In this document: positions 23,083 through 54,479 of the stretch, piece after piece
Layout: each line of letters starts with the position of its first letter
How positions within the stretch are numbered: position 1 is the stretch's first letter
Origin: an uncultured bacterium
GTDB taxonomy: Bacteria; Patescibacteriota; Minisyncoccia; Phycocordibacterales; UBA9973
Length of the DNA stretch: 64,000 bases
Direction: 5' to 3'
NCBI GenBank assembly: GCA_903892035.1
Contig: CAITGV010000001.1
Coordinates: 419,310 to 483,309, forward strand
Notes under the pieces: model-generated
Databases searched by the model: none
What the model saw: only the letters and a program-made list of their open reading frames with translations
What the model was told of the DNA's origin: nothing
Position numbers and translations under genes: made by a program

Positions 23083-23814
23083 ATGGAACAAGAACAAAAA
23101 GGACAATTACACCCGCTTACAATCCTTGCAAATGAGGCCATGGAAGTATTTTCTGAGATGGGCTTTGAGGTGGCTACGGGGCCTGAGCTTGAAACCGAGT
23201 GGTACAACTTCGACGTATTAAATGTTTCAAAAAATCATCCTGCTCGTGATATGCAAGATACATTTTGGATTAAACCCTCTCCTTTACAAGGAGAGGGTGA
23301 AGGGAGAGGTGAATTCGTTCTCCGTACTCACACAACTAGTGTTACGGCTCGAGCAATAGAGCAAGCCGGAAAAGATGGACGTATTCCTTGCGCTTTTATT
23401 TCTATCGGAAAAGTTTTTCGTAATGAATCGACAGATGCAACACATGAAATGCAATTTTTTCAGATTGATGGTGCGATGATTGGCGAAAATATAAATCTCG
23501 CAAATATGAAAGCAGTATTAATTAAATTTTATAAAAAAGCTCTTGGTGAAGATATTGAAATAGAATTTCGACCAAGTTTTTTTCCTTTTACAGAACCATC
23601 AGTCGAAGTCCATGCCAAATTTAATGGTAAATGGCTCGAGATGATGGGTGGAGGAATGATTCATCCACAAGTTTTAAAAAATCTTGGAATTGATTCAGAA
23701 AAATATCAAGGCTTTGCTTTTGGTGGAGGACTCGACCGTATCGCAATGATTCGCTGGAATATTCCCGATGTCCGTCTTTTTTATCAAGGTGATCTTCGTC
23801 TTAATCAATTTTAA
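23083..23814 (+). CDS. pheS: Phenylalanine--tRNA ligase alpha subunit (minimal form)
   Basis: Class II core motifs HPARDMQDTFW, FRNESTDATHEMQFFQIDG and GFAFGGGLDRIAM. Lacks the N-terminal extension. Contains a 13-aa palindromic-element insertion (PSPLQGEGEGRGE). Confidence 0.9.
   Translation: MEQEQKGQLHPLTILANEAMEVFSEMGFEVATGPELETEWYNFDVLNVSKNHPARDMQDTFWIKPSPLQGEGEGRGEFVLRTHTTSVTARAIEQAGKDGRIPCAFISIGKVFRNESTDATHEMQFFQIDGAMIGENINLANMKAVLIKFYKKALGEDIEIEFRPSFFPFTEPSVEVHAKFNGKWLEMMGGGMIHPQVLKNLGIDSEKYQGFAFGGGLDRIAMIRWNIPDVRLFYQGDLRLNQF
23275..23313 (+). repeat. In-frame intragenic palindromic element (copy in pheS): CCCTCTCC-TTTACAA-GGAGAGGG-tgaa-GGGAGAGGTGAA
   Basis: 8-bp perfect stem with a 7-nt loop, then a third GGGAGAGG repeat. 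39 bp (13 codons), encoding PSPLQGEGEGRGE between the conserved DTFWIK and FVLRTHTT segments. Confidence 0.8.
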
Positions 23815-23817
23815 CTT

Positions 23818-25743
23818 ATGAAAATTTCTTACAATTGGCTCAAATGGTATACACCCGACGCACCTACTCCAGAAAAACTGGCGGATATTTTTACATATCA
23901 TTTGACGGAAGTCGAGTCCGTCACCCCCTCGCCTTTACAAGGAGAGGCCGTAGACAGGAGTCTATCAATTTCAGATAGACGGGCAGGGGGAGAGGTAATT
24001 TTTGATTTAAATATTTTACCAAACCGAGCTCACGATTTGCTTTCACATCAGGGCATAGCACGTGAACTTGCAGGACAATTGGAAATTCCTTTCAATGACC
24101 CAACTTCTAAATACAAGATCCCCGCCGTCGCTAAAGCTTTGGTGGGCAAGCAAGAATTAAATATTAATATTCAAACTCCAAATTGTCGCCGTTATATGGG
24201 GCGTATTGTTCGTGGAATAAAAGTCGGTCCTTCACCAGACTGGGTTGTAAAACATCTGGAATCAATTGGCCAGCGAAGTATAAACAACATCGTCGATGCG
24301 ACAAATATTGTAATGTTTGACTGCGGACAGCCATGTCATGCTTTTGATTTGCGCAAAATAAAAGATTCAAAAATTGAAGTTGGACCTGCTCAAGATGGAA
24401 AAGAATTGGAATTACTTGGTTCAGAGAAAATTGTTGCGAAACTAAAAAATACCGATACGGTGATTGCAACTCCCTCGCCTTTACAAGGAGAGGGTCGGGG
24501 AGAGGTGCTTGCTCTTGCTGGTGTGAAGGGTGGTACAAATTCTGGTATTGCCCTAGATACAACTGAAATAGTTCTTGAAGTCGCAAATTTTGATTCGACA
24601 GCAGTGCGCAAGACTGCACGTAGGCTTGGAATTCTTTCTGATGCAGCAAAAAGATTTGAAAATGATTTATCTCCAGAGCTTTGTGATTTTGCAATGCTTG
24701 AACTTTCAGCTTTGATCGCGGAAGTTGCCTGTCCTGAGCGACCGGAGGGAGTCGAATGGGAAGAAATTATAGATGAGTATCCTGTAAAACAAACAGAAAG
24801 AAAAATAGAAATTTCTACAGAATTAATAAATAAAAAACTTGGTACAGATTTTAGTATAGATGAAATTGAAAATGTTTGGAAGAGATATAATTTTAAATAT
24901 GAAAAAAATGAAAGTTCTTTTACTATCACTCCATCAGCGTTACGCCTTGATTTAGTAATTCCAGAAGATTTAGTCGAAGAAGTGGGAAGAATTTTAGGCT
25001 ATGACAAAGTTGTGCCAGTACTTCCTAAAATTAATTTTACCCCTAAAATAAATGAAACTTGGACAAAGATTGCAAGTGCTCGCAACAAACTTATCGCTGA
25101 CGGATATAGAGAAGTGATGACTTATGCTTTTACTGACAAAGGTGATGTACAAGTACTTGCAAGTGCGAGTGATAAAAAATATTTGAGAACAAATATTTCT
25201 GAAGGTTTGAAAAAAAGTATTGCACTCAATCAGATCAACGCACCTTTGCTTGGTATAGATAAAGTAAAAGTTTTTGAAATTGGAACAGTTTTTTCTAAAG
25301 GTAAAGAAATTGTAAATTTAGCATATGGAGATAAAAAAAATGTGACTGAAGTTACCCTAGATGAATATATAAATACAACCCCACCTAACCTCCCCTTGTC
25401 AGGGAAGGAAACTGCTGTGCATTCTATTCCCCCTGATAAGAGGGATAAAGGGGGTTTTTTCAAAATGTGGAGCGCCTTCCCATTCATTTCTCGAGACATT
25501 GCTCTCTGGGTTCCAGCAGACACGAGTGCAGAAAGTGTTGCTGAAGTTATCAATAAAGATATTGGCGACTTGCTCGTAAAAGGTCCCGACATGTTTGACC
25601 AGTTCAAAAAGGAAGACAAGCAAAGCTATGCTTTTCGTCTCGTTTTCCAATCCTTCGACCGCACGCTGACCGACGAAGAAATCAATCCTATAATGGAATC
25701 TATTACCAAAAGAATAGGGGAAAATGGTTGGATGGTGCGCTAA
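23818..25743 (+). CDS. pheT: Phenylalanine--tRNA ligase beta subunit (short form)
   Basis: Position immediately after pheS. B3/4 and B5 domains and a C-terminal FDX-ACB-like region are present. Carries three palindromic-element insertions. Confidence 0.85.
   Translation: MKISYNWLKWYTPDAPTPEKLADIFTYHLTEVESVTPSPLQGEAVDRSLSISDRRAGGEVIFDLNILPNRAHDLLSHQGIARELAGQLEIPFNDPTSKYKIPAVAKALVGKQELNINIQTPNCRRYMGRIVRGIKVGPSPDWVVKHLESIGQRSINNIVDATNIVMFDCGQPCHAFDLRKIKDSKIEVGPAQDGKELELLGSEKIVAKLKNTDTVIATPSPLQGEGRGEVLALAGVKGGTNSGIALDTTEIVLEVANFDSTAVRKTARRLGILSDAAKRFENDLSPELCDFAMLELSALIAEVACPERPEGVEWEEIIDEYPVKQTERKIEISTELINKKLGTDFSIDEIENVWKRYNFKYEKNESSFTITPSALRLDLVIPEDLVEEVGRILGYDKVVPVLPKINFTPKINETWTKIASARNKLIADGYREVMTYAFTDKGDVQVLASASDKKYLRTNISEGLKKSIALNQINAPLLGIDKVKVFEIGTVFSKGKEIVNLAYGDKKNVTEVTLDEYINTTPPNLPLSGKETAVHSIPPDKRDKGGFFKMWSAFPFISRDIALWVPADTSAESVAEVINKDIGDLLVKGPDMFDQFKKEDKQSYAFRLVFQSFDRTLTDEEINPIMESITKRIGENGWMVR
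23924..23998 (+). repeat. In-frame palindromic element, composite copy (pheT copy 1)
   Basis: CCCTCGCC-TTTACAA-GGAGAGG, then a nested TAGAC/GTCTA and TCTATC/GATAGA hairpin spacer, then GGGGGAGAGGTAA. Encodes PSPLQGEAVDRSLSISDRRAGGEV. Confidence 0.7.
24473..24511 (+). repeat. In-frame palindromic element (pheT copy 2)
   Basis: CCCTCGCCTTTACAAGGAGAGGGTCGGGGAGAGGTGCTT, 39 bp, encodes PSPLQGEGRGEVL. The tail is read in a different frame from the pheS copy. Confidence 0.8.
25388..25460 (+). repeat. Variant in-frame palindromic elements (pheT copy 3, two hairpins)
   Basis: CCTCCCC-TTGTCA-GGGAAGG, then CCCCC-TGATAAGAGGGATAAA-GGGGG followed by a T-run. Encodes LPLSGKET...PPDKRDKGGFF. The loop TGATAAG is shared with the purD copy. 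Confidence 0.6.
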
Positions 25744-25781
25744 AATAAGTTATTTTAGCCCTTTCTTTACGTACATTTTTT

Positions 25782-25790
25782 TGCTATAAT
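25782..25790 (+). promoter_or_regulatory. Extended -10 box TGCTATAAT, 10 nt upstream of the gyrB start (possibly leaderless)
   Basis: TTTTTTTGCTATAATAGACACATAA ATG. The spacing implies a transcription start within a few nt of the ATG. Confidence 0.35.
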
Positions 25791-25800
25791 AGACACATAA

Positions 25801-27936: not shown

Positions 27937-27954
27937 GTTTTTAGTTAATTTTTT

Positions 27955-27981
27955 CCCACAGGCCTTGCCTGTGGTTTTGTG
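27955..27981 (+). terminator. Rho-independent terminator after gyrB
   Basis: Stem CCACAGG/CCTGTGG with loop CCTTG, followed by TTTTGTG. Confidence 0.6.
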
Positions 27982-28000
27982 TATGTAATATAATATCATT

Positions 28001-28678
28001 ATGAGTATTCGAAATACACCTTTTGTTTCAGGTGAGTATTATCATATATATAATCGTGGTAATGGAAAACACGAAATATTTTTAGATGATGAAGATTATG
28101 ATCGATTTATAAAATTACTTTATGTTTGTAACTCTGAAAAGAAATTTGTGTTTAGAGATTCAATAACAGATATTGGTATTGATGCTTTTGATTTTGAAAG
28201 GGAAGAACCTCTTGTTTCGATTATATCTTGGGTACTCATGCCAAATCATTTCCATATATTTCTTATTTCCCATAGGTCCGACCTATGGGAAGAAGATTAT
28301 AATCCGATTACAGAATTTATGAGAAAGTTATCAACTGCGTATGCTATGTATTTTAATAAAAAATATGGGAGGTCGGGGTCTTTGTTTGAAGGGAAATTTA
28401 AATCGAAACATGTTGAACAGGATAGTTATTTTAATTATCTTTTTGCTTACATACATCTGAATCCAATAAAATTGATTCAGTCAGACTGGAAAGAAAAGGG
28501 TATTAAAAATCCACAACAGGCGAGAGAATATTTATCAGAATATAAATATTCTAGTTTTCAAGATTATTTTGGTAAAGAAAGAAAAGAAGGAAAAATAATT
28601 GACATGAAAAATATTACAAAAGAAATCCAAAATGCTCACATAAAAGAACTTTTTGAGTGGATTGCTATTTCCCCATAG
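28001..28678 (+). CDS. IS200/IS605-like HUH (Y1) transposase / REP-associated tyrosine transposase (RAYT)-like
   Basis: YHIYNRGNGKHEIF N-terminal motif, HUH motif MPNHFHIFL, and catalytic Tyr region YAMYFNKKYG...FAYIHLNPIK. A REP palindrome lies inside the gene and another at its 3' end. Confidence 0.75.
   Translation: MSIRNTPFVSGEYYHIYNRGNGKHEIFLDDEDYDRFIKLLYVCNSEKKFVFRDSITDIGIDAFDFEREEPLVSIISWVLMPNHFHIFLISHRSDLWEEDYNPITEFMRKLSTAYAMYFNKKYGRSGSLFEGKFKSKHVEQDSYFNYLFAYIHLNPIKLIQSDWKEKGIKNPQQAREYLSEYKYSSFQDYFGKERKEGKIIDMKNITKEIQNAHIKELFEWIAISP
28266..28289. repeat. REP-like palindrome TCCCATAGGTCCGACCTATGGGAA inside the transposase ORF (in-frame, 24 bp)
   Basis: Perfect 9-bp arms CCCATAGGT/ACCTATGGG. 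Encodes SHRSDLWE immediately after the HUH motif. Confidence 0.7.
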
Positions 28679-38438: not shown

Positions 38439-41333
38439 ATGATATCTCGCATTTATGTAATCCCCACAGCAAATAAGCACGTTTCAATTATTGATTCATA
38501 TACAATAGATGCGGATTTGAGTAGTGTGGAAATTGAAAAAATTGCGCAAGCTCTGAAAAATCCAGTAATTGAAAAATATTCTGTAAATAAATTTTCTTTA
38601 GATTCAAAATGTAATTTTATTATTGAAATTGGATATTTACCTGGAGTTACAGACAATGTAGCAAAGTCCGCGATGGAAATGATTGTAGATTTACTCGGCC
38701 GACCATTTAAAGATGGCGAAGCAGTTTATACTTCAAAAGTACATTTAACAAACATTAACAATGCTTCGGAACTTTACAACCCTTTAATTGAACGAGCCAG
38801 CATTTCACCCTCCCATTTACAAAGGGAGGGCAAGGGAGAGGTGAGTTTACCCCTAACTGTTCCGAAAGTTGTATTACCTAAAAAAATACCAGTAATAGAA
38901 GTTTCTTTAAATATTTCAGATGATGAATTGGTTCGTATTGGAAAAGCTGGAATTGTGGATGAGGGTGGTGCACGTGGACCTCTTGCCCTTGATTTAATGT
39001 CAATGAAAACAATTCAAGAGCATTTCAAAAAACTTGGCAGAAATCCTACAGACATCGAACTCGAATCTTTGGCGCAAACTTGGAGTGAACATTGTAAACA
39101 TACAATTTTTGCAAATCCAATAGATGAAATAAAAGATGGTTTGTATAAGACATATATAAAAGGTGCAACAAATGAAATAAGAAAAATGAAAGGCAAGAAT
39201 GATTTTTGTGTTTCAGTTTTTTCTGATAATGCTGGTGGAATAATTTTTGATGAAAAATATTTAATTACACACAAGGTTGAAACTCATAATAGTCCTTCAG
39301 CGCTTGATCCATTTGGCGGAGCCATTACAGGTATCGTCGGAGTAAATCGCGATACGATGGGTTTCGGCCTCGGTGCAAAACCAGTGGCAAATGTTTTTGG
39401 TTTTTGTTTTGGTTATCCAGACGATGTGCGCCCACTTTATCGTGATAAAAATAAAACTCAAAAAATGCTTCCACCGAAGCGTATTGTCGATGGTGTGATA
39501 AAAGGAATTAATGCGGGCGGAAATTGCTCTGGTATTCCTACTGTATCGGGTTTTATTCGCTACGATGAACGTTTTCGTGGAAAGCCTTTAGTTTTCGCTG
39601 GAACTGTCGGTCTTATTCCAAAAAAAGTTGGAGGAAGACTTTCTCATGAAAAATCTGCTCAACCGGGAGACTATATTGTAATGGCGGGTGGGCGAGTGGG
39701 TGCCGATGGAATTCATGGTGCAACATTTTCTTCTGTGGTGATGGATACTGCATCTCCTGCAACAGCTGTGCAAATTGGCGACCCAATCACTCAGAAAAAA
39801 ATGAGCGATGCAATAGTAAAAGAAGCACGCGACATGGGATTATATTCAAGCATTACTGACAACGGTGCAGGAGGAATTTCTTGTTCTGTGGCAGAGATGG
39901 CAAAAGAATGTGGTGGGCTTGTTGTAGATATTGAAAAAGTTCCACTTAAATATCCAGGGTTAACACCATGGCAAATTTGGATTTCAGAATCCCAAGAACG
40001 CATGACACTTTCTGTGCCAAAAGATAAATGGGAAAGTTTTAAAAAATTAATGGACAAACGTGGCGTAGAAGCGACAGTGATTGGCGAATTTACAAATTCT
40101 GGAAAATGCATCGTGCGGCAAAATGGAAAAATTATTATGGACTTAGCACTTTCATTTTTGCACGATGGTTTACCAAAGCGCCCATTGTTTACAAAAAAAG
40201 TTGCTCATCTTCACAAAGAACCAAAAATGCCAAATGGAATTTCTCGAACTTCTTCACTTTTGAGTTTATTGAGTGAAGGAAATATCGCAGGATTTGAATG
40301 GGTATCGGAACAATATGATCATGAAGTTCAAGCGGGCTCAGTTATAAAACCGCTCGTTGGTCGCGGAAAAATAAATTCTGAAGCTCAAGTTTTTAGACCA
40401 TTACTTTCTTCTCAAAAAGGTGTAGTGCTTTCGACTGGTGTATATCCTTCGTATTCTGACATCAGTACTTACGCAATGGCAATGTGTGCACTAGACACTG
40501 CTGTACGAAATTCTATTGCCACAGGAGGAACACTTTCACATCTCGCAATTCTTGATAATTTCTGTTGGTGTTCTTCGTATGATGAAGAACGTCTTGGTGA
40601 ACTTGTGGCATCTGTGCGAGCTTGTTACGACGGGGCTGTATTTTACGGTACTCCTTTTATTTCTGGAAAAGACAGTATGTTCAATGATTTCAAAGGTTAT
40701 GATGAAAAAGGAAATCCTGTCGCGATTTCAATTCCGCCAACGCTTCTCATTTCAGCAATTGGAGTCGTGCCAGATATAAAAAAAGTTGTAAGTCCAGATT
40801 TTAAAATTGCTGGGGATACAATATATTTAATTGGTGAGACAAATGATGAGCTTGGAGCGTCGGAATATAATAAGATGCTCGCAAAAGGTAGTGGTGCAAT
40901 AGGCAACAATGTTCCAGTTGTTAATTTAGAAAAAAATAAAAAAACATATCTCGCACTTGAAAATGCAATAAAAAAAGAATTAATTGCTTCGTCTACAGCA
41001 CTTACATCTGGTGGACTTGCTGTCGCACTTTCAAAATCTGCTGTTGCTGGCGGACTTGGTTTTTCAGTATCTCTAAAAAATATTGTGGGTAATGCAGAAA
41101 ATGTTGATGCACAGCTTTTCTCGGAAAGCCAAGGACGTATTCTAGTAACAGTTTCAAAGAAAAATATTTCAGCTTTTGAAAAGGCAATGAAAGGCGTCGC
41201 TCTTTCAAGATTGGGAACAGTATCAAAAACAAATATTTGCATCATCAGTGACAAGCAAGGCAAAAAAGCAGTAGATACAACAGTTCAAAAACTTTCAAAT
41301 TCATATCACAGTTTTAGTAAAAAAATGACATAA
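38439..41333 (+). CDS. purL: Phosphoribosylformylglycinamidine synthase subunit PurL (FGAM synthase II), with an N-terminal PurS-like extension
   Basis: PurM-like repeats (HNSPSALDPFGGAITG, DNGAGGIS) over 964 aa. Carries one palindromic-element insertion. Confidence 0.9.
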   Translation: MISRIYVIPTANKHVSIIDSYTIDADLSSVEIEKIAQALKNPVIEKYSVNKFSLDSKCNFIIEIGYLPGVTDNVAKSAMEMIVDLLGRPFKDGEAVYTSKVHLTNINNASELYNPLIERASISPSHLQREGKGEVSLPLTVPKVVLPKKIPVIEVSLNISDDELVRIGKAGIVDEGGARGPLALDLMSMKTIQEHFKKLGRNPTDIELESLAQTWSEHCKHTIFANPIDEIKDGLYKTYIKGATNEIRKMKGKNDFCVSVFSDNAGGIIFDEKYLITHKVETHNSPSALDPFGGAITGIVGVNRDTMGFGLGAKPVANVFGFCFGYPDDVRPLYRDKNKTQKMLPPKRIVDGVIKGINAGGNCSGIPTVSGFIRYDERFRGKPLVFAGTVGLIPKKVGGRLSHEKSAQPGDYIVMAGGRVGADGIHGATFSSVVMDTASPATAVQIGDPITQKKMSDAIVKEARDMGLYSSITDNGAGGISCSVAEMAKECGGLVVDIEKVPLKYPGLTPWQIWISESQERMTLSVPKDKWESFKKLMDKRGVEATVIGEFTNSGKCIVRQNGKIIMDLALSFLHDGLPKRPLFTKKVAHLHKEPKMPNGISRTSSLLSLLSEGNIAGFEWVSEQYDHEVQAGSVIKPLVGRGKINSEAQVFRPLLSSQKGVVLSTGVYPSYSDISTYAMAMCALDTAVRNSIATGGTLSHLAILDNFCWCSSYDEERLGELVASVRACYDGAVFYGTPFISGKDSMFNDFKGYDEKGNPVAISIPPTLLISAIGVVPDIKKVVSPDFKIAGDTIYLIGETNDELGASEYNKMLAKGSGAIGNNVPVVNLEKNKKTYLALENAIKKELIASSTALTSGGLAVALSKSAVAGGLGFSVSLKNIVGNAENVDAQLFSESQGRILVTVSKKNISAFEKAMKGVALSRLGTVSKTNICIISDKQGKKAVDTTVQKLSNSYHSFSKKMT
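38805..38846 (+). repeat. In-frame intragenic palindromic element (purL copy)
   Basis: CACCCTCCC-ATTTACAAA-GGGAGGG-CAA-GGGAGAGGTGAG. The 9-nt loop variant shifts the frame; encodes PSHLQREGKGEV. Confidence 0.75.
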
Positions 41334-41711: not shown

Positions 41712-42005
41712 ATGGAAAAGAATTCACTTTTTTACATGGCAAATTTATATCCTGAAATAGGAAGACTTTTTACTTTTTACGATTCGGGAAAATTAGAAGC
41801 CGCAGAAAACGCAAAAATTCGAGCACTTTCAATAGTGGATAAAATACTTTCTTTTCGAGATATTATTCCGGCCGGTAGAGAAGAATGGTGTGTGATAAAA
41901 AATTTTATACTAGGATACGATAAATTAGACTCATATGAAAGAGAAATTTTAGAAAAATATAGTTACCCTTTTTCACTGAAATTTATGAAAGCATACAGTT
42001 CTTGA
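41712..42005 (+). CDS. Hypothetical protein (97 aa)
   Basis: ORF whose stop overlaps the start of the Cys-rich gene. Confidence 0.45.
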   Translation: MEKNSLFYMANLYPEIGRLFTFYDSGKLEAAENAKIRALSIVDKILSFRDIIPAGREEWCVIKNFILGYDKLDSYEREILEKYSYPFSLKFMKAYSS

Positions 42006-42093
42006 TTATGGAAACCAGGATCTGCCAAAATTGCAAAAATGATTTTACTATCGAGCCAGAAGATTTTTTGTTTTACGAAAAAATAAAAGTTCC
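42005..42093 (+). repeat. Near-identical ~90-bp 5' gene segment shared by the two Cys-rich paralogs (copy 1)
   Basis: ATTATGGAAACCAG(G/A)(A/G)TCTGCCAAAATTGCAAAAATGATTTTACTATCGAGCC(A/T)GAAGATTTTTTGTTTTACGAAAAAATAAAAGTTCC also occurs at 43711..43799. Confidence 0.8.
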
Positions 42094-43711
42094 TGCACCG
42101 ACATTTTGTCCGAAGTGTCGCTTGTATCGGCGTTCGGTGTGGCGCAATGAGCATTTTTTATTTAAGAAAAAAGATGACCTTACTGGAAACTTAATATTTT
42201 CTACATATTCTCCATCATCAAAAATTAAAATTTTTGAGCATTCCTATTGGTGGAGCGATGAGTGGGACCCAAAATCTTTTAGTAAGGAATATGATTTCAA
42301 TACAAACTTCTTTGAGCAATTTTATGATTTACTTTACTCAGTACCACTTTGCGATAGATCAATAAAAAGTTGTGTAGAAAGTGACTACTCAAACAATGCA
42401 ACTAATATTAAAAATGCATACCTTTGCTTTAATGCAAAAAATAGTGAGAATGTTTGTTACGGGTTTCATTTTAGCGGAAGTCATGACTGTGTGGATTTTT
42501 ATCAAACTAAAGACTCCCGTCTTTGCTATGAAACCTTTTCAGTTGTTGATTCTGAGCGTATGTTTTGGTGTAGTAACTGCTCGCAATGTTATAATTTATG
42601 GTTTTCAGATAATTGTAGAAACTGCACAGATTGTTTTGGTTGTGTAAACTTAAGAAATAAAAAATACTGTATTTTTAATAAACAATATACAAAAGAAGAA
42701 TATGAAAATGAAGTTAAAAAACTTTACGACGGATCTTTTTCTTGTTTACAGGAAATACTAAAAAAGGTAAAAATTTTTGAAAAACAATTTCCTGTACAGT
42801 ATTATCATGGGAAACACAATGTCAATGTGACTGGTGATTATATTTTTAAATCAAACAATACTTTTGATTGTTTTGAAATCCACAATGTAGATAATGCAAA
42901 ATTTTCTCAATTTATTAGACACTCTAAAGATGTTTATGATTTTAGTTGTTGGGGTATTTCATCGGAATTAATTTATGAGTCTGTAAGTTGTGGAGAAAGT
43001 TCACAAAATCTAAAATTTTGTTATGAATGTTGGCCAACATCTCATGATTTAGAATACTGTGTTGATTGTCACTCATCTTCGTATTGTTTTGGTTGCGTGA
43101 GTTTAAAAAAGGGAAAATACTGTATTTTCAATAAACAATATTCTAAAGATGAGTACTTTGAGCTAAGGTCTAGAATAATTGAACAAATGAATAAAATGCC
43201 TTATATTTCAAAAAATAAACAGATATATAAATATGGTGAATTTTTTCCGACTGAATTGTCACCATTTAATTACGAAGAATGTTCAGCTTCTGATTATTTT
43301 CCAAGTAATGAATTAATAAAAGTGCCGACAAATTATAAAATTGAAATAACACCTCAAGAATTACCAGAAATTTCTATTCAGGCAGATGATTCAATTGTTT
43401 ATAAAGTAATTGAATGCCAAGATAAACAATCCTGCAATCATCGTTGTGTTGGAGCTTTTAAAATAACAGATATTGAATTAAATTTTTATAAGCGTTTCAG
43501 TATACCGATACCTAGAATATGTCCAAACTGTAGATTTTATAATAGAATGGAAAAGTTAAATTCAGTGTTATCTCGTATTGATAATTGTATGTGTATCAAT
43601 GATTTACATGGGCATATGGGTAAATGTGGCCAAGAGTTTAAAACTAATTACCCTAAAAATAAGTCTAGAATATTATATTGTGAAGGTTGTTATCAAAAAG
43701 AAGTTATTTAA
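42008..43711 (+). CDS. Cys-rich repeat protein with N- and C-terminal zinc-ribbon motifs (paralog A)
   Basis: N-terminal CQNCKNDFTIEPEDFLFYEKIKVPAPTFCPKCR. About 20-aa Cys-spaced repeats, twice ending in CFGCVxL(R/K)xxKYCIFNKQY(T/S)K(E/D)EY. C-terminal LNFYKRFSIPIPRICPNCR plus a CxxC/HxH cluster. Confidence 0.7.
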   Translation: METRICQNCKNDFTIEPEDFLFYEKIKVPAPTFCPKCRLYRRSVWRNEHFLFKKKDDLTGNLIFSTYSPSSKIKIFEHSYWWSDEWDPKSFSKEYDFNTNFFEQFYDLLYSVPLCDRSIKSCVESDYSNNATNIKNAYLCFNAKNSENVCYGFHFSGSHDCVDFYQTKDSRLCYETFSVVDSERMFWCSNCSQCYNLWFSDNCRNCTDCFGCVNLRNKKYCIFNKQYTKEEYENEVKKLYDGSFSCLQEILKKVKIFEKQFPVQYYHGKHNVNVTGDYIFKSNNTFDCFEIHNVDNAKFSQFIRHSKDVYDFSCWGISSELIYESVSCGESSQNLKFCYECWPTSHDLEYCVDCHSSSYCFGCVSLKKGKYCIFNKQYSKDEYFELRSRIIEQMNKMPYISKNKQIYKYGEFFPTELSPFNYEECSASDYFPSNELIKVPTNYKIEITPQELPEISIQADDSIVYKVIECQDKQSCNHRCVGAFKITDIELNFYKRFSIPIPRICPNCRFYNRMEKLNSVLSRIDNCMCINDLHGHMGKCGQEFKTNYPKNKSRILYCEGCYQKEVI

Positions 43712-43799
43712 TTATGGAAACCAGAGTCTGCCAAAATTGCAAAAATGATTTTACTATCGAGCCTGAAGATTTTTTGTTTTACGAAAAAATAAAAGTTCC
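43711..43799 (+). repeat. Near-identical ~90-bp 5' gene segment shared by the two Cys-rich paralogs (copy 2)
   Basis: See copy 1. About 3 mismatches in 89 nt, far higher identity than the rest of the genes. Confidence 0.8.
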
Positions 43800-45456
43800 A
43801 CCTCCGACTTGGTGTGCTTACTGTAGGTTTATAAGAAAAATGACTTTCGTCAATGAGAGGTCTTTGTACAAAAGACAATGTGGAAATTGTGGAACTTCCA
43901 TTATCACAATGTATAAAGATACCAATTTATTTCCAGTTTGGTGTGTGAAATGTTATTTAGCGGATTCTTGGGACCCCGTAGCCTATGGTATAGATTTGGA
44001 TTTTTCTAAAAATTTCTTTACTCAGTTTAAAGAATTGCGAGATACCGTCCCACATCGTTCACTTGATCAAAATGAGAAGAATGGTAGTGATACAGAATAT
44101 TCCAATTTTTGTTATAGCAGTAAGAATTCCTATCTTTCTTTTAATGTCACAAGTTCAGAAAATATAAAGTATAGTAAATATGTTTTAAAAAAGAATAAAA
44201 ATTGCATCGATTCTTTTATATTTGCCGACAACGATAAATGTTACGAATTAGTTCAGGCAAGCAAGAATTATAATTGCTCTTTTCTTTTAGAAAGCAGAGA
44301 GTCTATTGATTCACATTTTCTGTATGATTGTTCAAATTGTGTTAGTTGTTGCTTATCTTCAAATATCCGAAATAAAAGCTTTGTTTTTGCCAATCAACAG
44401 CTTTCGAAAGAAGATTACATGAATGCAATAAAAGGACTTGAGCTCGGGACTTATACCGGCCAAGTTCGAGCCAAGAATATTTTTAAGGAAATAGTGGAAG
44501 GCTCAATTCATAAATATGCGCATAATAAAAATGCAGTAAACGTCACGGGGGACTTTATCGAGAATTCTAAAAATATTAAATATAGTTATGGTGTTGTGGG
44601 TGGAGAAAATATGAAAAATATTTTTTTTAGCATGAATGTGGCAAAAGATTCTCATGATTTAATATTTACCGGACGAGGAGAAGAATGTTATGAACTTGCA
44701 TACGGAGGTAGGGGAATAAATAGAGTCTTTTTTTCTTTTAGTTGCGGAAGTGGTAGTAAAAATTTGTTTTATTGTGACAATTGCAAGGCTTGCATGGATT
44801 GTTTTGGGTGTGTAGGGTTGCGGAACAAACAGTATTGTATCTTTAATAAAGAGTATACAAAAGAAGAGTATTTTAAAATCACAGACAAACTAAAAAAAGT
44901 CATGACCGATATGCCGTACGTTGATAAGATCGGCAGAGTTTATGGTTTTGGAGAGTATTTTCCTACAGAAATTTCTCCATTTGCATATAATGAAACAGTA
45001 GCATTTGAAGAACTGCCATTAAGCGAAGAGGGTGTTATTAAAAATGGATTTACATGGCAGAAGGCTGAAGCGAAGTCTCACATGCCAACAATTAGCGTAG
45101 ATGATATTTTAAATAATATTGCAGATATAGATGATAGTATTTGCAATGAAATTATATCTTGTCCTAACAATGGTAGTCCAAAAACTAGTTGTTCAGGAGC
45201 TTATAAAATTTTAAAAGATGAACTTACTTTTTATAAGCAAATGCATTTACCTATACCAAGGTATTGTCCAAATTGCAGATATCACCATCGTTTGGTTTGG
45301 AAAAATCCATTTCGTTTTTATAAAAGGCAATGCATGTGTGAAAAGGAAAACCATGGGCATGAGGGATCATGTCCTAACAAGTTTGAAACCTCATATTCCC
45401 CAGAACGTCCAGAAGTGGTATATTGTGAGAAGTGTTATCAAAAAGAGGTTATATGA
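43714..45456 (+). CDS. Cys-rich repeat protein with N- and C-terminal zinc-ribbon motifs (paralog B)
   Basis: Same architecture as paralog A (ETRVCQNCKNDFTIEPEDFLFYEKIKVPPPTWCAYCR ... LTFYKQMHLPIPRYCPNCR). The first ~90 nt are nearly identical to paralog A. Confidence 0.7.
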   Translation: METRVCQNCKNDFTIEPEDFLFYEKIKVPPPTWCAYCRFIRKMTFVNERSLYKRQCGNCGTSIITMYKDTNLFPVWCVKCYLADSWDPVAYGIDLDFSKNFFTQFKELRDTVPHRSLDQNEKNGSDTEYSNFCYSSKNSYLSFNVTSSENIKYSKYVLKKNKNCIDSFIFADNDKCYELVQASKNYNCSFLLESRESIDSHFLYDCSNCVSCCLSSNIRNKSFVFANQQLSKEDYMNAIKGLELGTYTGQVRAKNIFKEIVEGSIHKYAHNKNAVNVTGDFIENSKNIKYSYGVVGGENMKNIFFSMNVAKDSHDLIFTGRGEECYELAYGGRGINRVFFSFSCGSGSKNLFYCDNCKACMDCFGCVGLRNKQYCIFNKEYTKEEYFKITDKLKKVMTDMPYVDKIGRVYGFGEYFPTEISPFAYNETVAFEELPLSEEGVIKNGFTWQKAEAKSHMPTISVDDILNNIADIDDSICNEIISCPNNGSPKTSCSGAYKILKDELTFYKQMHLPIPRYCPNCRYHHRLVWKNPFRFYKRQCMCEKENHGHEGSCPNKFETSYSPERPEVVYCEKCYQKEVI

Positions 45457-45777: not shown

Positions 45778-46606
45778 CAAGTCAAAAATTCACTACAGGG
45801 AGAAGCCCAAAGTAATTGTCCTTTCTGGATATGGTTTAAACTGCGAGGAGGAGACAAAATTCGCTTTTGAGCACGCAGGTGGAGTGGCGGATATTGTGCA
45901 TATAAATGATTTGATTGAAAATCCAAAACAACTTTTGAAATATAATATTTTGGCTTTTCCTGGCGGATTTTCTTATGGTGACGATATGGGAAGCGGAAAA
46001 GCTTTTGCGAGTAAGATAAAAAATCACTTAAAAAAAGAATTCGAGGAATTTTTGGCAGGAGATACTTTGGCAATAGGTATTTGTAATGGTTTTCAAATAA
46101 TGACGAGTTTGGGGATTTTACCCGGGGCTTTGGCGCACAATGAAGGTGGGCGATATATAGATAGGTGGGTGGATTTAGAAGTCCCACCCTCTTCCTTAAT
46201 AAGGAGAGGGCCGGGGAGAGGTTCTTCGCCATGGACCAAAGGCATTAAGAAAATTTCTCTTTCAATTGCGCATGGAGAAGGCAGATATATTACAACAGAA
46301 AAAGAATATAAAAATTTGTTGAAGGAAAATAGAATTGCATTTAAATACGTAGAAGGAGAGATGTGTAAATACCAAAATTTGAAAGCAAATCCAAATGGTG
46401 CAATGCATGCAACAGCGGGCGTTTTGGGTTATAATGGCAGAGTCCTCGGTATGATGCCTCACCCAGAGAGGGCGATGTTTTTCACACAGAGGCCAGATTG
46501 GGAATTGCAGAAGGAAGTATTGAAAAGAAAGGGTAAAAAAATTTCAGACGAAGGAGCTGGGATTTTATTGTTTAAAAATGCGGTTAGGTATTTTACAAAA
46601 GCATAA
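45758..46606 (+). CDS. purQ: Phosphoribosylformylglycinamidine synthase glutaminase subunit PurQ
   Basis: Class I GATase: GICNGFQIM (Cys nucleophile), HGEGRY, MMPHPER. Carries one palindromic-element insertion. The start overlaps the GIY-YIG gene by 20 nt, so the true start may be downstream or non-ATG. Confidence 0.85.
   Translation: MKKEKFNKSKIHYREKPKVIVLSGYGLNCEEETKFAFEHAGGVADIVHINDLIENPKQLLKYNILAFPGGFSYGDDMGSGKAFASKIKNHLKKEFEEFLAGDTLAIGICNGFQIMTSLGILPGALAHNEGGRYIDRWVDLEVPPSSLIRRGPGRGSSPWTKGIKKISLSIAHGEGRYITTEKEYKNLLKENRIAFKYVEGEMCKYQNLKANPNGAMHATAGVLGYNGRVLGMMPHPERAMFFTQRPDWELQKEVLKRKGKKISDEGAGILLFKNAVRYFTKA
46183..46224 (+). repeat. In-frame intragenic palindromic element (purQ copy)
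   Basis: CCCACCCTCTTCC-TTAATAA-GGAGAGGG-CC-GGGGAGAGGTTC encodes PPSSLIRRGPGRGSS, a third reading frame of the tail. Confidence 0.7.
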
Positions 46607-48926: not shown

Positions 48927-48933
48927 TAAATAT

Positions 48934-51900
48934 ATGGCATCAAGAGAAGAAAAAAAGAAAATTGAGAATAAAGAAACAAAAAAAGTTGTTGCTAGTAATA
49001 AGGAGGGGAAGGAAGTATCTCAAGAAGAATTTTTAAATATTGCGAATGCAGAGAAAAGTAAATTTGAAGAAGAGACTAAAAATGCTTTACAAAATCTCAA
49101 CTCAGTTGACCTAGATGAACATACTTTTAACGAGATAAAGAATGAAAATAAAATTGAAGAAGCGTTGGGTGAAAACTTAAAAGAGGCCAATGCGGTAATT
49201 GAGAACGCAAAGAAGAGCCTAGAGGGCGCTGAATTTAACAGAGATAAGTGCCTCTATGATTTGAAGGCCAAAATTGAAAATGCCAATAGTCTCGAGGAAA
49301 TTGTGAGTGCAGTGACGATCGTACTCGAAAGTCAAAAAGACAGAGAGGACTTAAAGATGTTATTTAATAATTTTAAGTTTAAGGCATCTGAATTGACGAG
49401 CGATGGCAAGGAGAGTCTTGTTAAAGACTATTTCGGTGACATAGTCAAAACAATTACTGAATCACTGAGCGATCCTCGAAACGTAGAACAAGTAAAGAAT
49501 ACAGACTTAGTGGACATAAAAAAACAATCCATAGAAGCACTGAGTGATATTGTTCCACCTACTTTACAGGGACAAGAAAGCCCGGAGTATCTTAAAATGC
49601 TAGAGAAAATTCAGTCTAAGATTGTTGTTCCAGAATACAATTTAAGCGAATTTGTGGATTTTTTAAACCAGTATAATGAAGTGTCAAAAGGCAGGGAGGG
49701 CACGTTTGATAAATTTATCTTTAAAGATTTTCCAAAGAAAAAAGATGACTTTTTCCATGTAAAAAATGAAATTAATTATTTATTGCAAGACCCGCTTGCG
49801 CTAGAAAAAATTGACTTTATTGATAAAAGTAGCCTAAATAAAACTCTCAATCTTTTTGACGGAGATGAATTTTATAGAACTGAATATGGTGGACCGGAGA
49901 AGGCAGAGTTTCTAGAAGACAGCAACATTCTCAAGATGCCCGATTATAAAAAAGGTGTAAATATTTTTAATACTGAATACGTTCAAACAGAAAGGGCGAA
50001 CAAATTACACGGACTGTCGTTAGGGTCACTGAAACTTGCCAAAAACAACGAGTATTTTGACATTAAAACTAAGTATTCATCTGGTGCTCCAACGATAAAT
50101 CTAATCACAGAGGAAGAACTAAAGAAAATTCACGATTTTGATAGTAATCTAAAAGAATTAGATCTATATCAAATGGAATATTTCAAAGAAAATGTTGAAA
50201 ACCTACCGCAAGACATCAAAGATTTTTACCAGAAAGTTTATAACGAGCAGAATTATTCAGGTAATTTTAGCGCAGTCGCAAATAAATCTTTTTTTGAACT
50301 GGCAAAAAGTCCTGAAAACCTGAATAAAATTAAGAAATGCTTTGAGTCCAGATTGATTAGCACTATATACGATAATAATTATATCGAAAGAGTTGCGGAG
50401 TTAGATGAAAAAATCATTGATTTGATGATAGAAACTGGAGAGGGCTTGAATGCAAACATAGAATTGTTGGAAAAAGTTGCCGGCTTAAACGATCCTGACA
50501 AGGAGAAGTACAAGGAAATTGTTGCGGGGTACAGTCTTTTATCAAATTACGATAAACTTGAAACAACAGAATATGTACAGCGTATAAAGGAAATACCTGC
50601 TGAAGAAATGGACTTTTTTCTGAAATGGCAGAATACTCAGGGTAATAAGTGCTATTTTGGAATCAAAAAACTTACAGGGCCGTTGGATGACGCACTGTAT
50701 AGGAAGGAAGATTTCTCTAAACTAGTAGAGTTCCATAATAGTAGCCCAGACGCGGACTCCTTGATTTTTGATTTTTTTGCCAAGAATGATCCATACGTTT
50801 CTGATATAGTAAGAAATATTGAAACATATGGAAAAAATCCAAAAAAGTTTTTTACAGATAACCCAAAGGATGTTATTAAAAATTTTGATGAGATTCAAAA
50901 GCTTTTGGCGAGTAGGGGCGAGTCTTTAAATCAAGAAGAACTTAACTCAATATTCAATTATACTTTGAAGAGTAGTCCTCAGATGTTTCTTGAAAAAATC
51001 AGCTTCCCACTCTCACCAGAACAGCAGAAAGTTATTGATATTTTCACGAAAATTTCAAACTCGCCATCAAGTGAAATGAAAAATATGGCGCTCGAGCTCT
51101 CACTGCAGATAGTGGAGGGTGGGGATCTTTCAACCATCGATGAACGATATGAAAAGATTGATAGCATTTTTGTGCGAAACAATATCCCGTTTGTGGGAAA
51201 GCAGGCAAAGATTTGTGAAGCGCTCCACCCTCAGATAGTTACACAAAATAATTCTAGCCCAGAACTGCAATCTCTACATAGCAACAATGCTAGGCGACTT
51301 TTGATTTTCAAAGATTTGATGCTCACAAACTTTAACAGTTTGAACTCAAACTTGGAACAATATCTTTTGGTTTTCAAAAGTGGTCAGGAGGTTTTGGATA
51401 AATATGAAAGTGGTGAGCAGTTGAGCGGAGACGAAGAAGAAAAACTGAAGTATTTCTTTAAAAAGATTAACGCTCTTTCCGAAAATACCAAAAAGACTGA
51501 CAAGTTCAACAAGTTTGATTTGGAAGATTTAAGTTTGACTGAAAACTTGCAAGCGCTGAAATCAAATTTTGGTGTTGGAGAAAATCAGACAATAATCGGC
51601 AAATTTGAAGATACTTTTTTGAAAAGAATTGGTATAAGTAATTTCTCTGAAGCCCTAAAACGTTATGATGATTTACGTGAAGCAGTAAGCAACCGTAATA
51701 AGCAACTAGCGGAGAGTGGGCAGATTAATTTAGGTGAAAATGATTTAGCTAAGGGTATTTCTATTGATTATTTTGATAAAAATCTTGATCGAGGTATTTA
51801 TGCACCTGAGTTTATTGGGGCAGAAACCATTGAAGCAAAAGGTAAATCAAAAGGCAGTGATTCTACGCCATGGGATACGGATTTAATTATGGTCGGAAAT

Positions 51901-53154
51901 AGGAATACTTCAGAAATTATAGAAAAATCTACAGCTTCAGGGTATGGCGAAGCAATAATAATCATCAGAGATAGAGGCCAATTTAATCGTACGGAAAAAG
52001 GACAACCCATAGAAAAAGGTCAAGATAAATTGGAGTTATTTAAGACTCGTGCTTTGGGCGAGGACCATTATGGTATCAGGACTGGTTTTGGTTCGACCGA
52101 GATTGATGCGTTGCTGGCCAAGGATAATGTAATACAAAATAGCAAACAGCTAGATTCGCTGAAGTTCTCAATAGCGCAAAAGGGCTTCTATATACCTATC
52201 TGCGATAAAACAGGCAAGGTTATTTTTACTGCCGATGAATATGAAGAATACAAGAAAATATTTGCTGGTGTTGATAAATATCATGGTGAGGAAATCAGCT
52301 TACGGGAAGACTGGAAAAATTCTAAATTCAGCGAAGACATTAGCAAGTTTTCTCAAACTAACGAAAATCTTGATAATATTAACAAGATTAAGGATGATAT
52401 TTATTCTGATATTGAAAGTGACCTGAAAACTTTTGGAATTGAGCTTCATAAAGGACGTTACGACGATAGCGTTGTGGGAGCAAAGATAATCGATACAGGC
52501 TCTACTGGTCGTGGTGCAGCCCTCGACGAAGGATATGATCTTGACTTTGTTATTAAGGTCGACGATCGGGATGCAGATAAGATTAGTCAAATGGCTGAAA
52601 ATTTGAAAAAGAAGTATCCATATGATCAAGATTATGAAAGAGATGGCATGAGAACGTATAGGTTTAAGAGTTTTGAAAAAGATGGAAACAAAATTGACTT
52701 GGATATTAGTTTTGTCAAAAAATCAGACAGTGAAGAACTTGATGCAAATGAAGCCGTCGCGCAGAAGTACGACTCTATCAAAAAATCTTCAGGAGAAGAT
52801 AAGTTACTTGATGTTCTAACAAATGTCAGATTTGCAAAAAAGGAGTTGAAGGAAGCAGGTTGCTATAAGAAAGGAATGACTGGTAATGGAGAACAACAAG
52901 GCGGAATGGGTGGCATTGGCGTTGAAAACTGGATATTGCAAAATGGTGGAGATGCGGTGGATGCATTTAGAGATTTCAATAAAAATGCTTACCAAGATGG
53001 TGAACTCGTATCATTTAATGACTTCAAGAAAAAATACAAGATCTTCAGCGCTGGTAGCAATATACGAGGCGGAGTCAAGGCAGAAAACTTCGTTTATAAT
53101 ATGGATGAAACAGGCTATAATAAAATGGCTGAACTTTCGAAGAAGTTTATTTAG
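48934..53154 (+). CDS. Giant (1406 aa) protein: long Lys/Glu/Asn-rich helical N-terminal region plus a C-terminal polymerase-beta-superfamily nucleotidyltransferase domain
   Basis: C-terminal motif IIDTGSTGRGAALDEGYDLDFVIKVDD (hG[GS]x9-13DhD) plus a downstream IDLDISF acidic strand. No signal peptide. Located inside the pur cluster. Confidence 0.75.
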   Translation: MASREEKKKIENKETKKVVASNKEGKEVSQEEFLNIANAEKSKFEEETKNALQNLNSVDLDEHTFNEIKNENKIEEALGENLKEANAVIENAKKSLEGAEFNRDKCLYDLKAKIENANSLEEIVSAVTIVLESQKDREDLKMLFNNFKFKASELTSDGKESLVKDYFGDIVKTITESLSDPRNVEQVKNTDLVDIKKQSIEALSDIVPPTLQGQESPEYLKMLEKIQSKIVVPEYNLSEFVDFLNQYNEVSKGREGTFDKFIFKDFPKKKDDFFHVKNEINYLLQDPLALEKIDFIDKSSLNKTLNLFDGDEFYRTEYGGPEKAEFLEDSNILKMPDYKKGVNIFNTEYVQTERANKLHGLSLGSLKLAKNNEYFDIKTKYSSGAPTINLITEEELKKIHDFDSNLKELDLYQMEYFKENVENLPQDIKDFYQKVYNEQNYSGNFSAVANKSFFELAKSPENLNKIKKCFESRLISTIYDNNYIERVAELDEKIIDLMIETGEGLNANIELLEKVAGLNDPDKEKYKEIVAGYSLLSNYDKLETTEYVQRIKEIPAEEMDFFLKWQNTQGNKCYFGIKKLTGPLDDALYRKEDFSKLVEFHNSSPDADSLIFDFFAKNDPYVSDIVRNIETYGKNPKKFFTDNPKDVIKNFDEIQKLLASRGESLNQEELNSIFNYTLKSSPQMFLEKISFPLSPEQQKVIDIFTKISNSPSSEMKNMALELSLQIVEGGDLSTIDERYEKIDSIFVRNNIPFVGKQAKICEALHPQIVTQNNSSPELQSLHSNNARRLLIFKDLMLTNFNSLNSNLEQYLLVFKSGQEVLDKYESGEQLSGDEEEKLKYFFKKINALSENTKKTDKFNKFDLEDLSLTENLQALKSNFGVGENQTIIGKFEDTFLKRIGISNFSEALKRYDDLREAVSNRNKQLAESGQINLGENDLAKGISIDYFDKNLDRGIYAPEFIGAETIEAKGKSKGSDSTPWDTDLIMVGNRNTSEIIEKSTASGYGEAIIIIRDRGQFNRTEKGQPIEKGQDKLELFKTRALGEDHYGIRTGFGSTEIDALLAKDNVIQNSKQLDSLKFSIAQKGFYIPICDKTGKVIFTADEYEEYKKIFAGVDKYHGEEISLREDWKNSKFSEDISKFSQTNENLDNINKIKDDIYSDIESDLKTFGIELHKGRYDDSVVGAKIIDTGSTGRGAALDEGYDLDFVIKVDDRDADKISQMAENLKKKYPYDQDYERDGMRTYRFKSFEKDGNKIDLDISFVKKSDSEELDANEAVAQKYDSIKKSSGEDKLLDVLTNVRFAKKELKEAGCYKKGMTGNGEQQGGMGGIGVENWILQNGGDAVDAFRDFNKNAYQDGELVSFNDFKKKYKIFSAGSNIRGGVKAENFVYNMDETGYNKMAELSKKFI

Positions 53155-53168
53155 ATTAACCAACATAT

Positions 53169-54479
53169 ATGCAAAAACAGAAAATTTTAATAATAGGTGG
53201 AGGAGGACGTGAGCATGCGGTCGGGTGGAAAGTGGCGCAGTCGCCGAGAGCGGGTGAGCTGTTTTTTGCGCCCGGCAATGCGGGTACTGCGACACTTGGT
53301 ACAAACGTACCTATTTCTGCTACAGATATTCCTGCACTTATTAATTTTGCAAAAAAAGAAAATATTGATTTAACCTTGGCTTTGCCGGATGATCCACTTT
53401 CACTCGGTATTGTTGATCAGTTTAATGCCGAAGGTCTACGAATCTGGGGACCAACAAAAGCTGCCGCTCAACTTGAATCTTCGAAAGCTTATGCAAAAGA
53501 TTTTATGAAAAGGCACAATTTGCCTACAGCAAAATTTGAAACATTTACTGATTTTGAAAAAGCAAAAGAATATGTAGCAAATGGGTCGTTGCCAGTCGTA
53601 ATCAAAGCAAGTGGTTTGGCGCTCGGGAAAGGTGTGGTTATTTGTGAGACTCTCAATCAAGCAAATGAAGCATTGGAAAATATGCTCGTGAAAAAAGTTT
53701 TTGGCGAATCTGGTGCGACTGTCGTGATTGAAGAGTTTTTATTAGGTCCAGAAATTTCCATTCATGCATTTTGTGACGGAGAAAATTATAAAATATTTCC
53801 TTCCGCTCAAGATCATAAAAGAGTAGGTGTTGGGGACACAGGACCCAATACTGGCGGAATGGGTACAGTTGCACCAGTGCCATTTGCATCCACTGAATTA
53901 ATGAAAAAAATTGAAGAGAGTATTGTCGCTCCGACTTTGCGCGCAATGGTTGCGGACGGAATCCCATTTCAAGGTGTTCTTTTTCCAGGACTGATGCTGA
54001 CAAAAGATGGTCCTAAGATTTTGGAATTTAATGCACGCTTTGGCGACCCAGAAACACAATCTTTTATGCGTTTACTCGACACTGACCTGATTGAAATTAT
54101 TGAAGCGACACTCGATCATAAACTTAATGAAATAGAAATAAAATGGAAACCTTTATTCGCCTGCAACATTGTACTTGCATCTCTAGGCTATCCAGGGAAT
54201 TATGAAAAGGGGAAAGTGATTACGGGACTTGAGAAGTTTCCTCCCCTTGATAAGGGGGAGGTGCCAGAGGCGGAGGGGGTTGTATTATTTCATGCTGGTA
54301 CAAAGGCAGAAAATGGAGAACTTTTAACCAATGGCGGGCGGGTGCTCGGTGTATCAGCCACAGGAAATACACTTCCTGAAGCCCTAGAGAAAGCTTATAA
54401 AGCAATTGAGAGCATTAATTTCGATGGTATGCAATATCGCAAAGATATTGGAAAAAATGCGATGAAAATGCTAGAGTAA
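53169..54479 (+). CDS. purD: Phosphoribosylamine--glycine ligase
   Basis: ILIIGGGGREHA N-terminus and an ATP-grasp core. Carries one palindromic-element insertion near the C-terminus. Confidence 0.9.
   Translation: MQKQKILIIGGGGREHAVGWKVAQSPRAGELFFAPGNAGTATLGTNVPISATDIPALINFAKKENIDLTLALPDDPLSLGIVDQFNAEGLRIWGPTKAAAQLESSKAYAKDFMKRHNLPTAKFETFTDFEKAKEYVANGSLPVVIKASGLALGKGVVICETLNQANEALENMLVKKVFGESGATVVIEEFLLGPEISIHAFCDGENYKIFPSAQDHKRVGVGDTGPNTGGMGTVAPVPFASTELMKKIEESIVAPTLRAMVADGIPFQGVLFPGLMLTKDGPKILEFNARFGDPETQSFMRLLDTDLIEIIEATLDHKLNEIEIKWKPLFACNIVLASLGYPGNYEKGKVITGLEKFPPLDKGEVPEAEGVVLFHAGTKAENGELLTNGGRVLGVSATGNTLPEALEKAYKAIESINFDGMQYRKDIGKNAMKMLE
54237..54284 (+). repeat. Variant in-frame palindromic element (purD copy)
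   Basis: CCTCCCC-TTGATAA-GGGGAGG, then TGCCAGAGGCGGAGGGGGTTG. Encodes PPLDKGEVPEAEGV immediately before the conserved VLFHAGT. Confidence 0.65.

Follow-up and report, generated by a model that had tools for sequence, protein, structure and literature searches.

Within the 64,000-nt stretch of contig CAITGV010000001.1 analyzed here (GCA_903892035.1, forward-strand positions 419,310 to 483,309; hereafter the window, numbered from its first base), a short GC-rich element lies inside five genes, pheS, pheT, purL, purQ and purD, with three sites in pheT, giving six clear copies and one degenerate copy. We conclude, with a probability of roughly 0.8, that the seven sites are in-frame copies of a BoxC/PIT/TM_ECO-class repeat fixed in genes of a Candidate Phyla Radiation (CPR) bacterium, the DNA being what is maintained and the encoded peptide a by-product. 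BoxC, PIT and triplex motifs were described in the 1990s and are abundant in many bacteria; we know of no function or mode of spread for them. The successive names, BoxC of Escherichia coli, PIT (potential intrastrand triplex) elements and TM_ECO, refer to one family, and TM_ECO is counted among the intrastrand triplex motifs of class II, purine type (Holder et al. 2015, PMC4666352; earlier work on PIT and BoxC by Hoyne/Maher 2000 and Bachellier is used here as cited in that paper).

The copies share a layout of C-rich arm, loop, complementary G-rich arm, short spacer (second loop), and second G-rich arm mirroring the first. The initial annotation had described a palindrome followed by a tail; the palindrome stands, while the tail, GGGAGAGG, mirrors the G-arm GGAGAGGG, and this relation makes the element the known class II intrastrand-triplex motif. 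C-arm and G-arm pair at all seven sites (7–9-bp arms, at most one mismatch or bulge), with predicted DNA hairpin energies of -5.7 to -12.7 kcal/mol. Mirror mismatches number zero in pheS, pheT site 2, purQ and purD, one in pheT sites 1 and 3, and two in purL. A mirror fits better than a direct repeat both in the inverted pheT copy and in purD (GGGGGAGG ... GGAGGGGG), where the third arm mirrors the G-arm exactly.

The element is in clear excess over chance. A search for CCCTCTCC-N7-GGAGAGGG with at most two mismatches matched at 23275, 23926 and 24472, with no match in 100 shuffles, and a window scan for C-rich/G-rich 8-bp hairpins returned the seven sites, one intergenic terminator, tRNA-Thr and nothing else. 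Our three-arm finder, which accepts a site only if C-arm, complementary G-arm and mirror G-arm are all present, recovered four + strand copies (23275, 24472, 38808 and 54240) and one - strand copy (25379-25408), as well as 23927 once a 41-nt second loop was permitted; the same finder gave zero matches in 100 Markov shuffles. Only the purQ copy (46187) was missed, the sole cause being a 1-nt bulge in its C-arm. Relaxed three-arm and peptide-motif scans revealed no further degenerate copies in the window. The in-gene copies noted in the initial annotation are real, one of the seven being degenerate. The copies are listed below as C-arm / first loop / G-arm / second loop / third arm.

pheS, 23275..23310, + strand: CCCTCTCC / TTTACAA / GGAGAGGG / TGAA / GGGAGAGG+T; encodes PSPLQGEGEGRG, between DTFWIK and (EF)VLRTH.
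pheT site 1, 23926..23996, + strand: CCCTCGCC / TTTACAA / GGAGAGGC / 39-nt loop / GGGAGAGG+T; encodes PSPLQGEAVDRSLSISDRRAGGEV.
pheT site 2, 24472..24506, + strand: CCCTCGCC / TTTACAA / GGAGAGGG / TCG / GGGAGAGG+T; encodes PSPLQGEGRGEV.
pheT site 3, degenerate and inverted, 25379..25408, - strand: CCTTCCC / TGACAA / GGGGAGG / TTA / GGTGGGG; the gene strand reads TPPNLPLSGKE.
purL (N-terminal extension), 38808..38842, + strand: CCCTCCC / ATTTACAAA / GGGAGGG / CAA / GGGAGAGG+T; encodes PSHLQREGKGEV.
purQ, 46187..46222, + strand: CCCTCTTCC (with the 1-nt bulge) / TTAATA / AGGAGAGGG / CCG (the 'type B' loop of E. coli) / GGGAGAGG+T; encodes PSSLIRRGPGRG.
purD, divergent, 54240..54279, + strand: CCTCCCC / TTGATAAG / GGGGAGG / 10-nt loop / GGAGGGGG; encodes PPLDKGEVPEAEG, with the C-arm read in a different frame.

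Several particulars of the initial annotation change with these assignments. The cores are 30–40 nt long (71 nt in pheT copy 1), not the ~39–45 bp first given; the copies do not all share one orientation, that near 25388 being on the minus strand; and the tail GGGAGAGG is read in two frames, as GRG in pheS and purQ and as GEV in pheT sites 1 and 2 and purL, rather than in three. The long second loop of pheT copy 1, 39 nt or, with 7-nt arms, 41 nt depending on where the arms are drawn, holds a hairpin of its own, GTCTATC-AATTTCA-GATAGAC. The sequence of this nested hairpin does not recur elsewhere, and a hairpin nested in the second loop is found in about 10% of metagenome copies. Of the seven copies, four are crowded into 2.2 kb of pheS-pheT (23275-25408), and PheS and PheT are also hosts in the relative L183, the Paceibacteria-like contig L005, and L004; the clustering could be due to local hopping or to an unusual tolerance of these two proteins.

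The published family pattern can be written as CCCTCNCCC-N3-6-GGGNGAGGG-N3-GGGNGAGGG, with a second loop of TTA (type A) or CCG (type B) (PMC4666352). It has no exact match in the window; pheT site 2 matches with three mismatches, as does pheS if a 4-nt spacer is allowed, and the remaining copies are more divergent. Each of the three mismatches affects the outer position of one arm, so that this position is T/A/T here and C/G/G in the published pattern. The three-arm layout and the core, CCCTC(T/G/C)CC ... GG(A/G)GAGGG ... GGG(A/T)GAGG, are the same, and two window copies have a CCG or TTA spacer. In pheT sites 1 and 2, CCCTCGCC opposite GGAGAGGG leaves one mismatched stem position; the E. coli consensus used as our query carries the identical CCCTCGCC arm, and mismatch-bearing variants are the commonest in E. 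coli (PMC4666352). Against these likenesses, the window arms measure 7–8 nt rather than 9, the first loop is 6–9 nt rather than 3–6 (3–7 nt if the stem is extended through T:A flanks), and the spacer is 4, 10 and 39 nt in three copies rather than a fixed 3 nt. Intergenic location describes the E. coli copies and is no structural criterion of the family. Judged from their sequences, the window elements are a variant of the family with 7–8-nt arms, AT-shifted outer positions and genic location, and triplex folding is predicted for them. The TM_ECO oligonucleotide forms a stable triplex in vitro, with a melting temperature of 70–82 C (PMC4666352); from the window, CCCTCGCCTTTACAAGGAGAGGGTCGGGGAGAGGT and the purD copy are the sequences that we name as oligonucleotides for folding. 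Rfam profiles detect only tRNAs in the window. Our literature search, whose coverage was incomplete and did not extend to the original PIT papers, returned no report that places such motifs in CPR, or in frame within genes, and nothing on in-frame palindromic repeats in CPR/Patescibacteria.

The window has ~36% GC, with positive GC skew over its whole length; the + strand carries nearly all the genes, and open reading frames (ORFs) cover ~91%. Pfam confirms the host genes as PheS, PheT, PurL, PurQ and PurD, and the closest named homologs of PheS and PurL belong to Patescibacteria/CPR (Paceibacterota, Nomurabacteria, Kaiserbacteria). The same PheS is also encoded on a 359-kb metagenomic contig and, in three further assemblies of other samples, on shorter contigs. 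All of these match the window at 100% identity, which rules out an assembly artefact as the origin of the copies. The window PheS (23083-23814) comprises only the catalytic core (243 aa), and its best homologs are likewise 227–290 aa, so the short form is common to the clade.

Comparison with orthologs reveals added residues at most of the sites. The PheS loop between DTFWIK and VLRTH has 14 aa in the window and 5 aa in most of 120 homologs, a gain of 9; PheT sites 1 and 2 align to clean gaps in the syntenic relative L007 (57% identity), with gains of 18 and 7–8 aa; PurD has 8–10 aa more than the PurD structures 2yw2 and 2yrw, and PurQ 8–9 aa more than the glutaminase domain of Salmonella PurL. 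The expectation of the initial annotation that ortholog alignments would expose indels holds at these sites but not at two others. The stretch before FKMWS at PheT site 3 varies in length in both the window and L007, and since the region is variable among relatives no clean indel can be drawn; the purL copy occupies a linker of the N-terminal extension that measures 8–16 aa in 120 homologs, with only 2–5 aa more in the window, and so resembles a replaced segment more than a clean insertion. Placement in loops, also proposed earlier, agrees with the AlphaFold model of PheS, in which the insert forms a coil flanked by two strands and pLDDT drops below 50 at residues 68–74. The empty sites in L007 are purine-rich turn codons: GAA AAA GAT GG in pheS and pheT site 1, and GAT GGT GAA GGT in pheT site 2.

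The variable PheT region before FKMWS has two further occupants. (i) L183 has a forward copy there, where the window copy is inverted. (ii) L007 (GCA_964423445.1, pheT ~12230-12260) has a different in-frame GC-rich perfect palindrome, CCCGCTAGCGGG, so that other small palindromes may also occupy this loop.

Composition and reading frame both indicate that the constraint acts on the DNA, whose nucleotide sequence appears to be what is maintained. The elements have a GC fraction of 0.55–0.70 in a genome of 0.36, and the inserts are built from the rarest codons of that genome (CCC, 8% of Pro; GGG, 9% of Gly; TCG, 8% of Ser; AGG and CGG, 7% and 1% of Arg). A metagenome scan with the loop TTTANAA subfamily yielded at least 131 copies, mostly on contigs of 33–49% GC. 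Of the 131 listed, 32 fall within ORFs that encode 250 aa or more, 11 of them in forward and 21 in reverse orientation; three frames are used, with PSPLQGEG, PLLYKERG, LSFIRRG, TSPQPSPYKGEG or PHPNPLLVKERG as the translations. Their hosts, named by eye from conserved motifs in the translated ORFs without database search, include ValRS (twice), RecG, UvrC (three copies), PNPase, MurE, RarA, HsdR and PheT. One such metagenome contig (Ga0172381_10012879) has a UvrC-like ORF with three triplex-type inserts, TSPLAPLLIKERG, HPSPLLEGEG and TSSLTPLLIKERG.

The reverse interpretation would be that the Pro/Gly-rich segments are selected protein features, for instance flexible linkers, and that the DNA symmetry is incidental; most window copies do use the one frame giving PSPLQGEG..., and the inserts are located at turns. 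A protein would have no use for a mirror third arm, however, or for the rarest codons of the genome, the segments are absent from the nearest relatives, and the same DNA elsewhere yields unrelated peptides (PLLYKERG, LSFIRRG, TSPQPSPYKGEG). With multiple frames and both orientations added to the rare codons, we reject a selected protein motif and consider this interpretation close to refuted. The earlier description of the inserts as repeats at the DNA level, in frame in housekeeping genes and not due to a duplicated protein motif, is thus supported by the rare codons and by the several frames used elsewhere.

The family extends far beyond this genome, as the search of other genomes that the initial annotation had called for makes plain. 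Scanning species genomes with CCCTCNCC-N5-9-GGNGAGGG-N2-5-GGGAGAGG gave at least 120 loci from more than ten phyla, including alpha-, beta-, gamma- and delta-proteobacteria, Chloroflexi, Cyanobacteria, Verrucomicrobia, Planctomycetes, Acidobacteria, Bacteroidota, Myxococcota, Nitrospirota and Patescibacteria. The three arms are conserved across the listed loci, the 5' flanks of ~280 copies are not, inverted pairs occur at many of the listed loci, and loops are shared among copies of one genome. The E. coli-type consensus was found in 5426 of 5426 complete E. coli genomes, at a median of 19 places per genome, and the eight best E. coli matches listed have no annotated feature beneath them. In 262 proteobacterial genomes 3610 copies have been counted (PMC4666352).

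Gains have been repeated. Triplex-type inserts occur in one loop of 6 of 120 PheS homologs, in both orientations; the sequences most similar to each of the six (80–91% core identity) have the empty 5-aa loop, and the six are only 73–83% identical to one another, which on these alignments indicates that at least six PheS lineages gained inserts independently in one loop. The copy load is lineage-specific, as it is in the known family, whose copy number differs strongly among lineages: there are no copies in 31 kb of the relative L007/L008 and five in 11 kb of L005. The loop TTTACAA is common to four window copies and absent from ~150 loop-unconstrained copies in other genomes; a shared loop that is otherwise rare points to copying within this genome. 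Three low-GC viral contigs of IMG/VR (L010, L011 and L012) carry complete copies, GGAGAGGG-TAA/TTA-GGGTGAGGT, apparently between genes; for the E. coli copies no phage association is reported (PMC4666352).

We envision that the copies arose by copying within the genome and became fixed in genes at beta-turn or linker positions able to tolerate 7–18 extra residues, where they would be translated as disordered loops rich in Pro, Ser, Leu, Gly, Glu and Arg. The G-rich strand, when unwound and single, could fold into a hairpin or triplex. It is the + strand in six of the seven copies, and the positive GC skew suggests that the + strand is the lagging-strand template, on which such a structure could form during replication and may drive the spread of the element as well as local instability. 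The inserts would be selfish, neutral or slightly harmful passengers rather than adaptations. That all seven copies lie in genes is about what unselective insertion would give in a window that is ~91% ORF (0.91^7 ~0.5), and the unusual point is the contrast with the E. coli copies, which are intergenic in 23 of 23 cases in K-12 (PMC4666352).

A broader proposal, which we put forward tentatively and think unlikely as a whole, is that triplex repeats are active mobile DNA across phyla, spreading in a manner that depends on single-stranded DNA structure, repeatedly entering purine-rich beta-turn codons in gene-dense CPR genomes and forming a main source of lineage-specific loop insertions in CPR proteins. 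If it were true, the in-gene copies together with orthologous empty sites would provide the first natural footprints for a BoxC-type copying mechanism.

Some observations weigh against our reading. Net gains of 7–9 aa are smaller than an 11–12-aa element, so some native codons must have been lost or overwritten, which weighs against simple insertion; the purL copy, as noted, is replacement-like. No empty allele is near enough to give a footprint: the closest PheS relative has ~89% core identity with no DNA-level match, and in blastn the next relatives after three 100%-identical contigs give no match. A filled and an 'empty' E. coli locus were also compared as a footprint and discarded, the 'empty' strain having its whole intergenic region replaced, which makes the comparison uninformative on mechanism. 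Among the 47 ORFs of the window there is no transposase except an unrelated large serine recombinase. To our knowledge, no mobilising enzyme has been described for the BoxC/PIT/TM_ECO family. The basis is 64 kb of one genome with the copies clustered as described, and the inserts may have some benefit at the RNA or protein level. In E. coli no triplex could be seen in vivo, and RNA does not adopt triplexes of the purine type (PMC4666352).

Two other explanations keep the DNA at the center of the argument. The elements could be true miniature transposable elements (of the MITE or Rickettsia palindromic element, RPE, type), moved by cut-and-paste by a transposase encoded elsewhere and bearing terminal inverted repeats and target duplications. 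Many copies, genome-specific subfamilies with shared loops, lineage-specific load, frequent inverted doublets in other genomes and RPE-like in-frame insertion would all suit such elements. At 30–40 nt, however, the window copies are below MITE and RPE size, their asymmetric three-arm layout is no pair of terminal inverted repeats, the 5' flank is unconserved, no target duplication is visible at the sites (with no close empty allele to compare), the window encodes no DDE or HUH transposase, and in E. coli Holder et al. could connect the motif with neither transposons, phages nor plasmids (PMC4666352). We consider this explanation improbable, and the window gives no visible sign of transposition as the basis of the mobility suggested in the initial annotation: no terminal inverted repeats, target duplications or related transposase were seen there. 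Slightly less probable again is maintenance for a role in cis, either as an mRNA hairpin that slows ribosomes at domain boundaries or as a DNA site exploited for recombination or replication pausing. The predicted RNA hairpins of six copies reach -16 to -27 kcal/mol, gains recur at the same protein loops, and TM_ECO loci coincide with local sequence variability in E. coli (PMC4666352). Yet the fold z-scores are modest (-1.3 to -3.1), close relatives function without the elements, and both orientations occur in genes, the reverse mRNA having two C-rich arms and one G-rich arm and thus no G-rich third arm; nor was any promoter or terminator activity or polymerase effect of PIT elements seen in vivo (PMC4666352). 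Fixed in-frame copies of the triplex repeat, with the peptide as by-product, remain our preferred account.

In-frame copies in essential CPR enzymes mean that triplex repeats are not excluded from genes, and they identify a concrete DNA-level source for extra loops of CPR proteins. Where orthologs provide an empty allele, such a site could reveal how insertion takes place. In annotation, recurrent peptides such as PSPLQGEG, PLLYKERG and TSPQPSPYKGEG in metagenomic proteins can be recognized as translated repeat DNA.

Other features of the window deserve mention. (i) The tRNA-Thr gene adjoins a 2.7-kb segment (58454-61229) bounded by 158-bp inverted repeats (58524-58681 and 61062-61229; 89–96% complementary) and holding a large serine recombinase gene (58458-60035, minus strand) and a 231-aa ORF without a Pfam match; it looks like an invertible or integrated element. 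(ii) A GC-rich non-coding stretch, 61286-61500, separates the right inverted repeat from a FabH-like gene and has a 15–18-bp stem (61393-61412 pairs with 61461-61480); there is no credible Rfam match here or in 61.0–61.6 kb generally. The initial annotation had linked to the element family both this repeat and the TTTTTGGAGGG sub-repeats within the inverted repeats around the recombinase, and we reject both as members, as neither has the layout of C-arm, G-arm and mirror arm. (iii) A near-complete de novo purine pathway is encoded on one strand at 38439-58446: purL, purQ, purF, purN, purD, purE, purM, purC and purB. CPR bacteria are generally described as lacking nucleotide biosynthesis, and such a pathway is unusual among them. 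(iv) Pfam gives little or no signal for very large ORFs at 16297-20997, 48934-53154, 21116-23011 and 42002-45456; the sole Pfam match of a 1566-aa ORF is the Peptidase_S74 chaperone domain, and ORFs of 1406, 631, 569 and 589 aa have none.

Small repeats within coding sequences have precedents. Intragenic ERIC (enterobacterial repetitive intergenic consensus) copies (Delihas 2007) and the Cod-2 family (PMC2267715) are likewise very small repeats found in several coding sequences in different frames, but their sequence and architecture are unrelated to those of the window elements, and none is described in CPR or with a triplex layout. REP (repetitive extragenic palindromic)/REPIN-RAYT systems (PMC3116915) also consist of short GC-rich hairpin repeats with genome-specific subfamilies, and the inverted doublets common in other genomes resemble theirs; the window elements differ in having a mirror third arm and no conserved GTAG-type flank. 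No match to Y1_Tnp, the mark of a RAYT (Y1 transposase) gene, is found within the 64-kb window. REP sequences have been described for individual genomes, whereas the triplex-motif core spans phyla.

The likeness to RPEs suggested in the initial annotation holds for behavior, in that both look selfish, lie in frame in housekeeping genes unrelated to one another, and give rise to additional surface segments with which the protein can still function. RPEs are ~100–150 bp long, Rickettsia-specific and have a conserved peptide per family (Ogata et al. 2000, as cited in PMC10969869). Elements of the window type span phyla, use several frames and have the triplex three-arm layout; at 30–40 nt (71 nt with the nested hairpin) they fall short of RPE size, and we set them apart on these grounds. 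Nor are they a novelty of an AT-rich lineage, the family being the known BoxC/PIT/TM_ECO. From the E. coli members of that family the window copies differ in setting: the host is a CPR bacterium, the density is ~110 per Mb of window against a median of ~19 places per ~5-Mb E. coli genome (by BLAST), and seven of seven copies are in frame inside Pfam-confirmed genes while those of E. coli are reportedly always intergenic. The repeat family described here is thus a known one, and what is new is where it lies, in frame within essential genes of a CPR bacterium.

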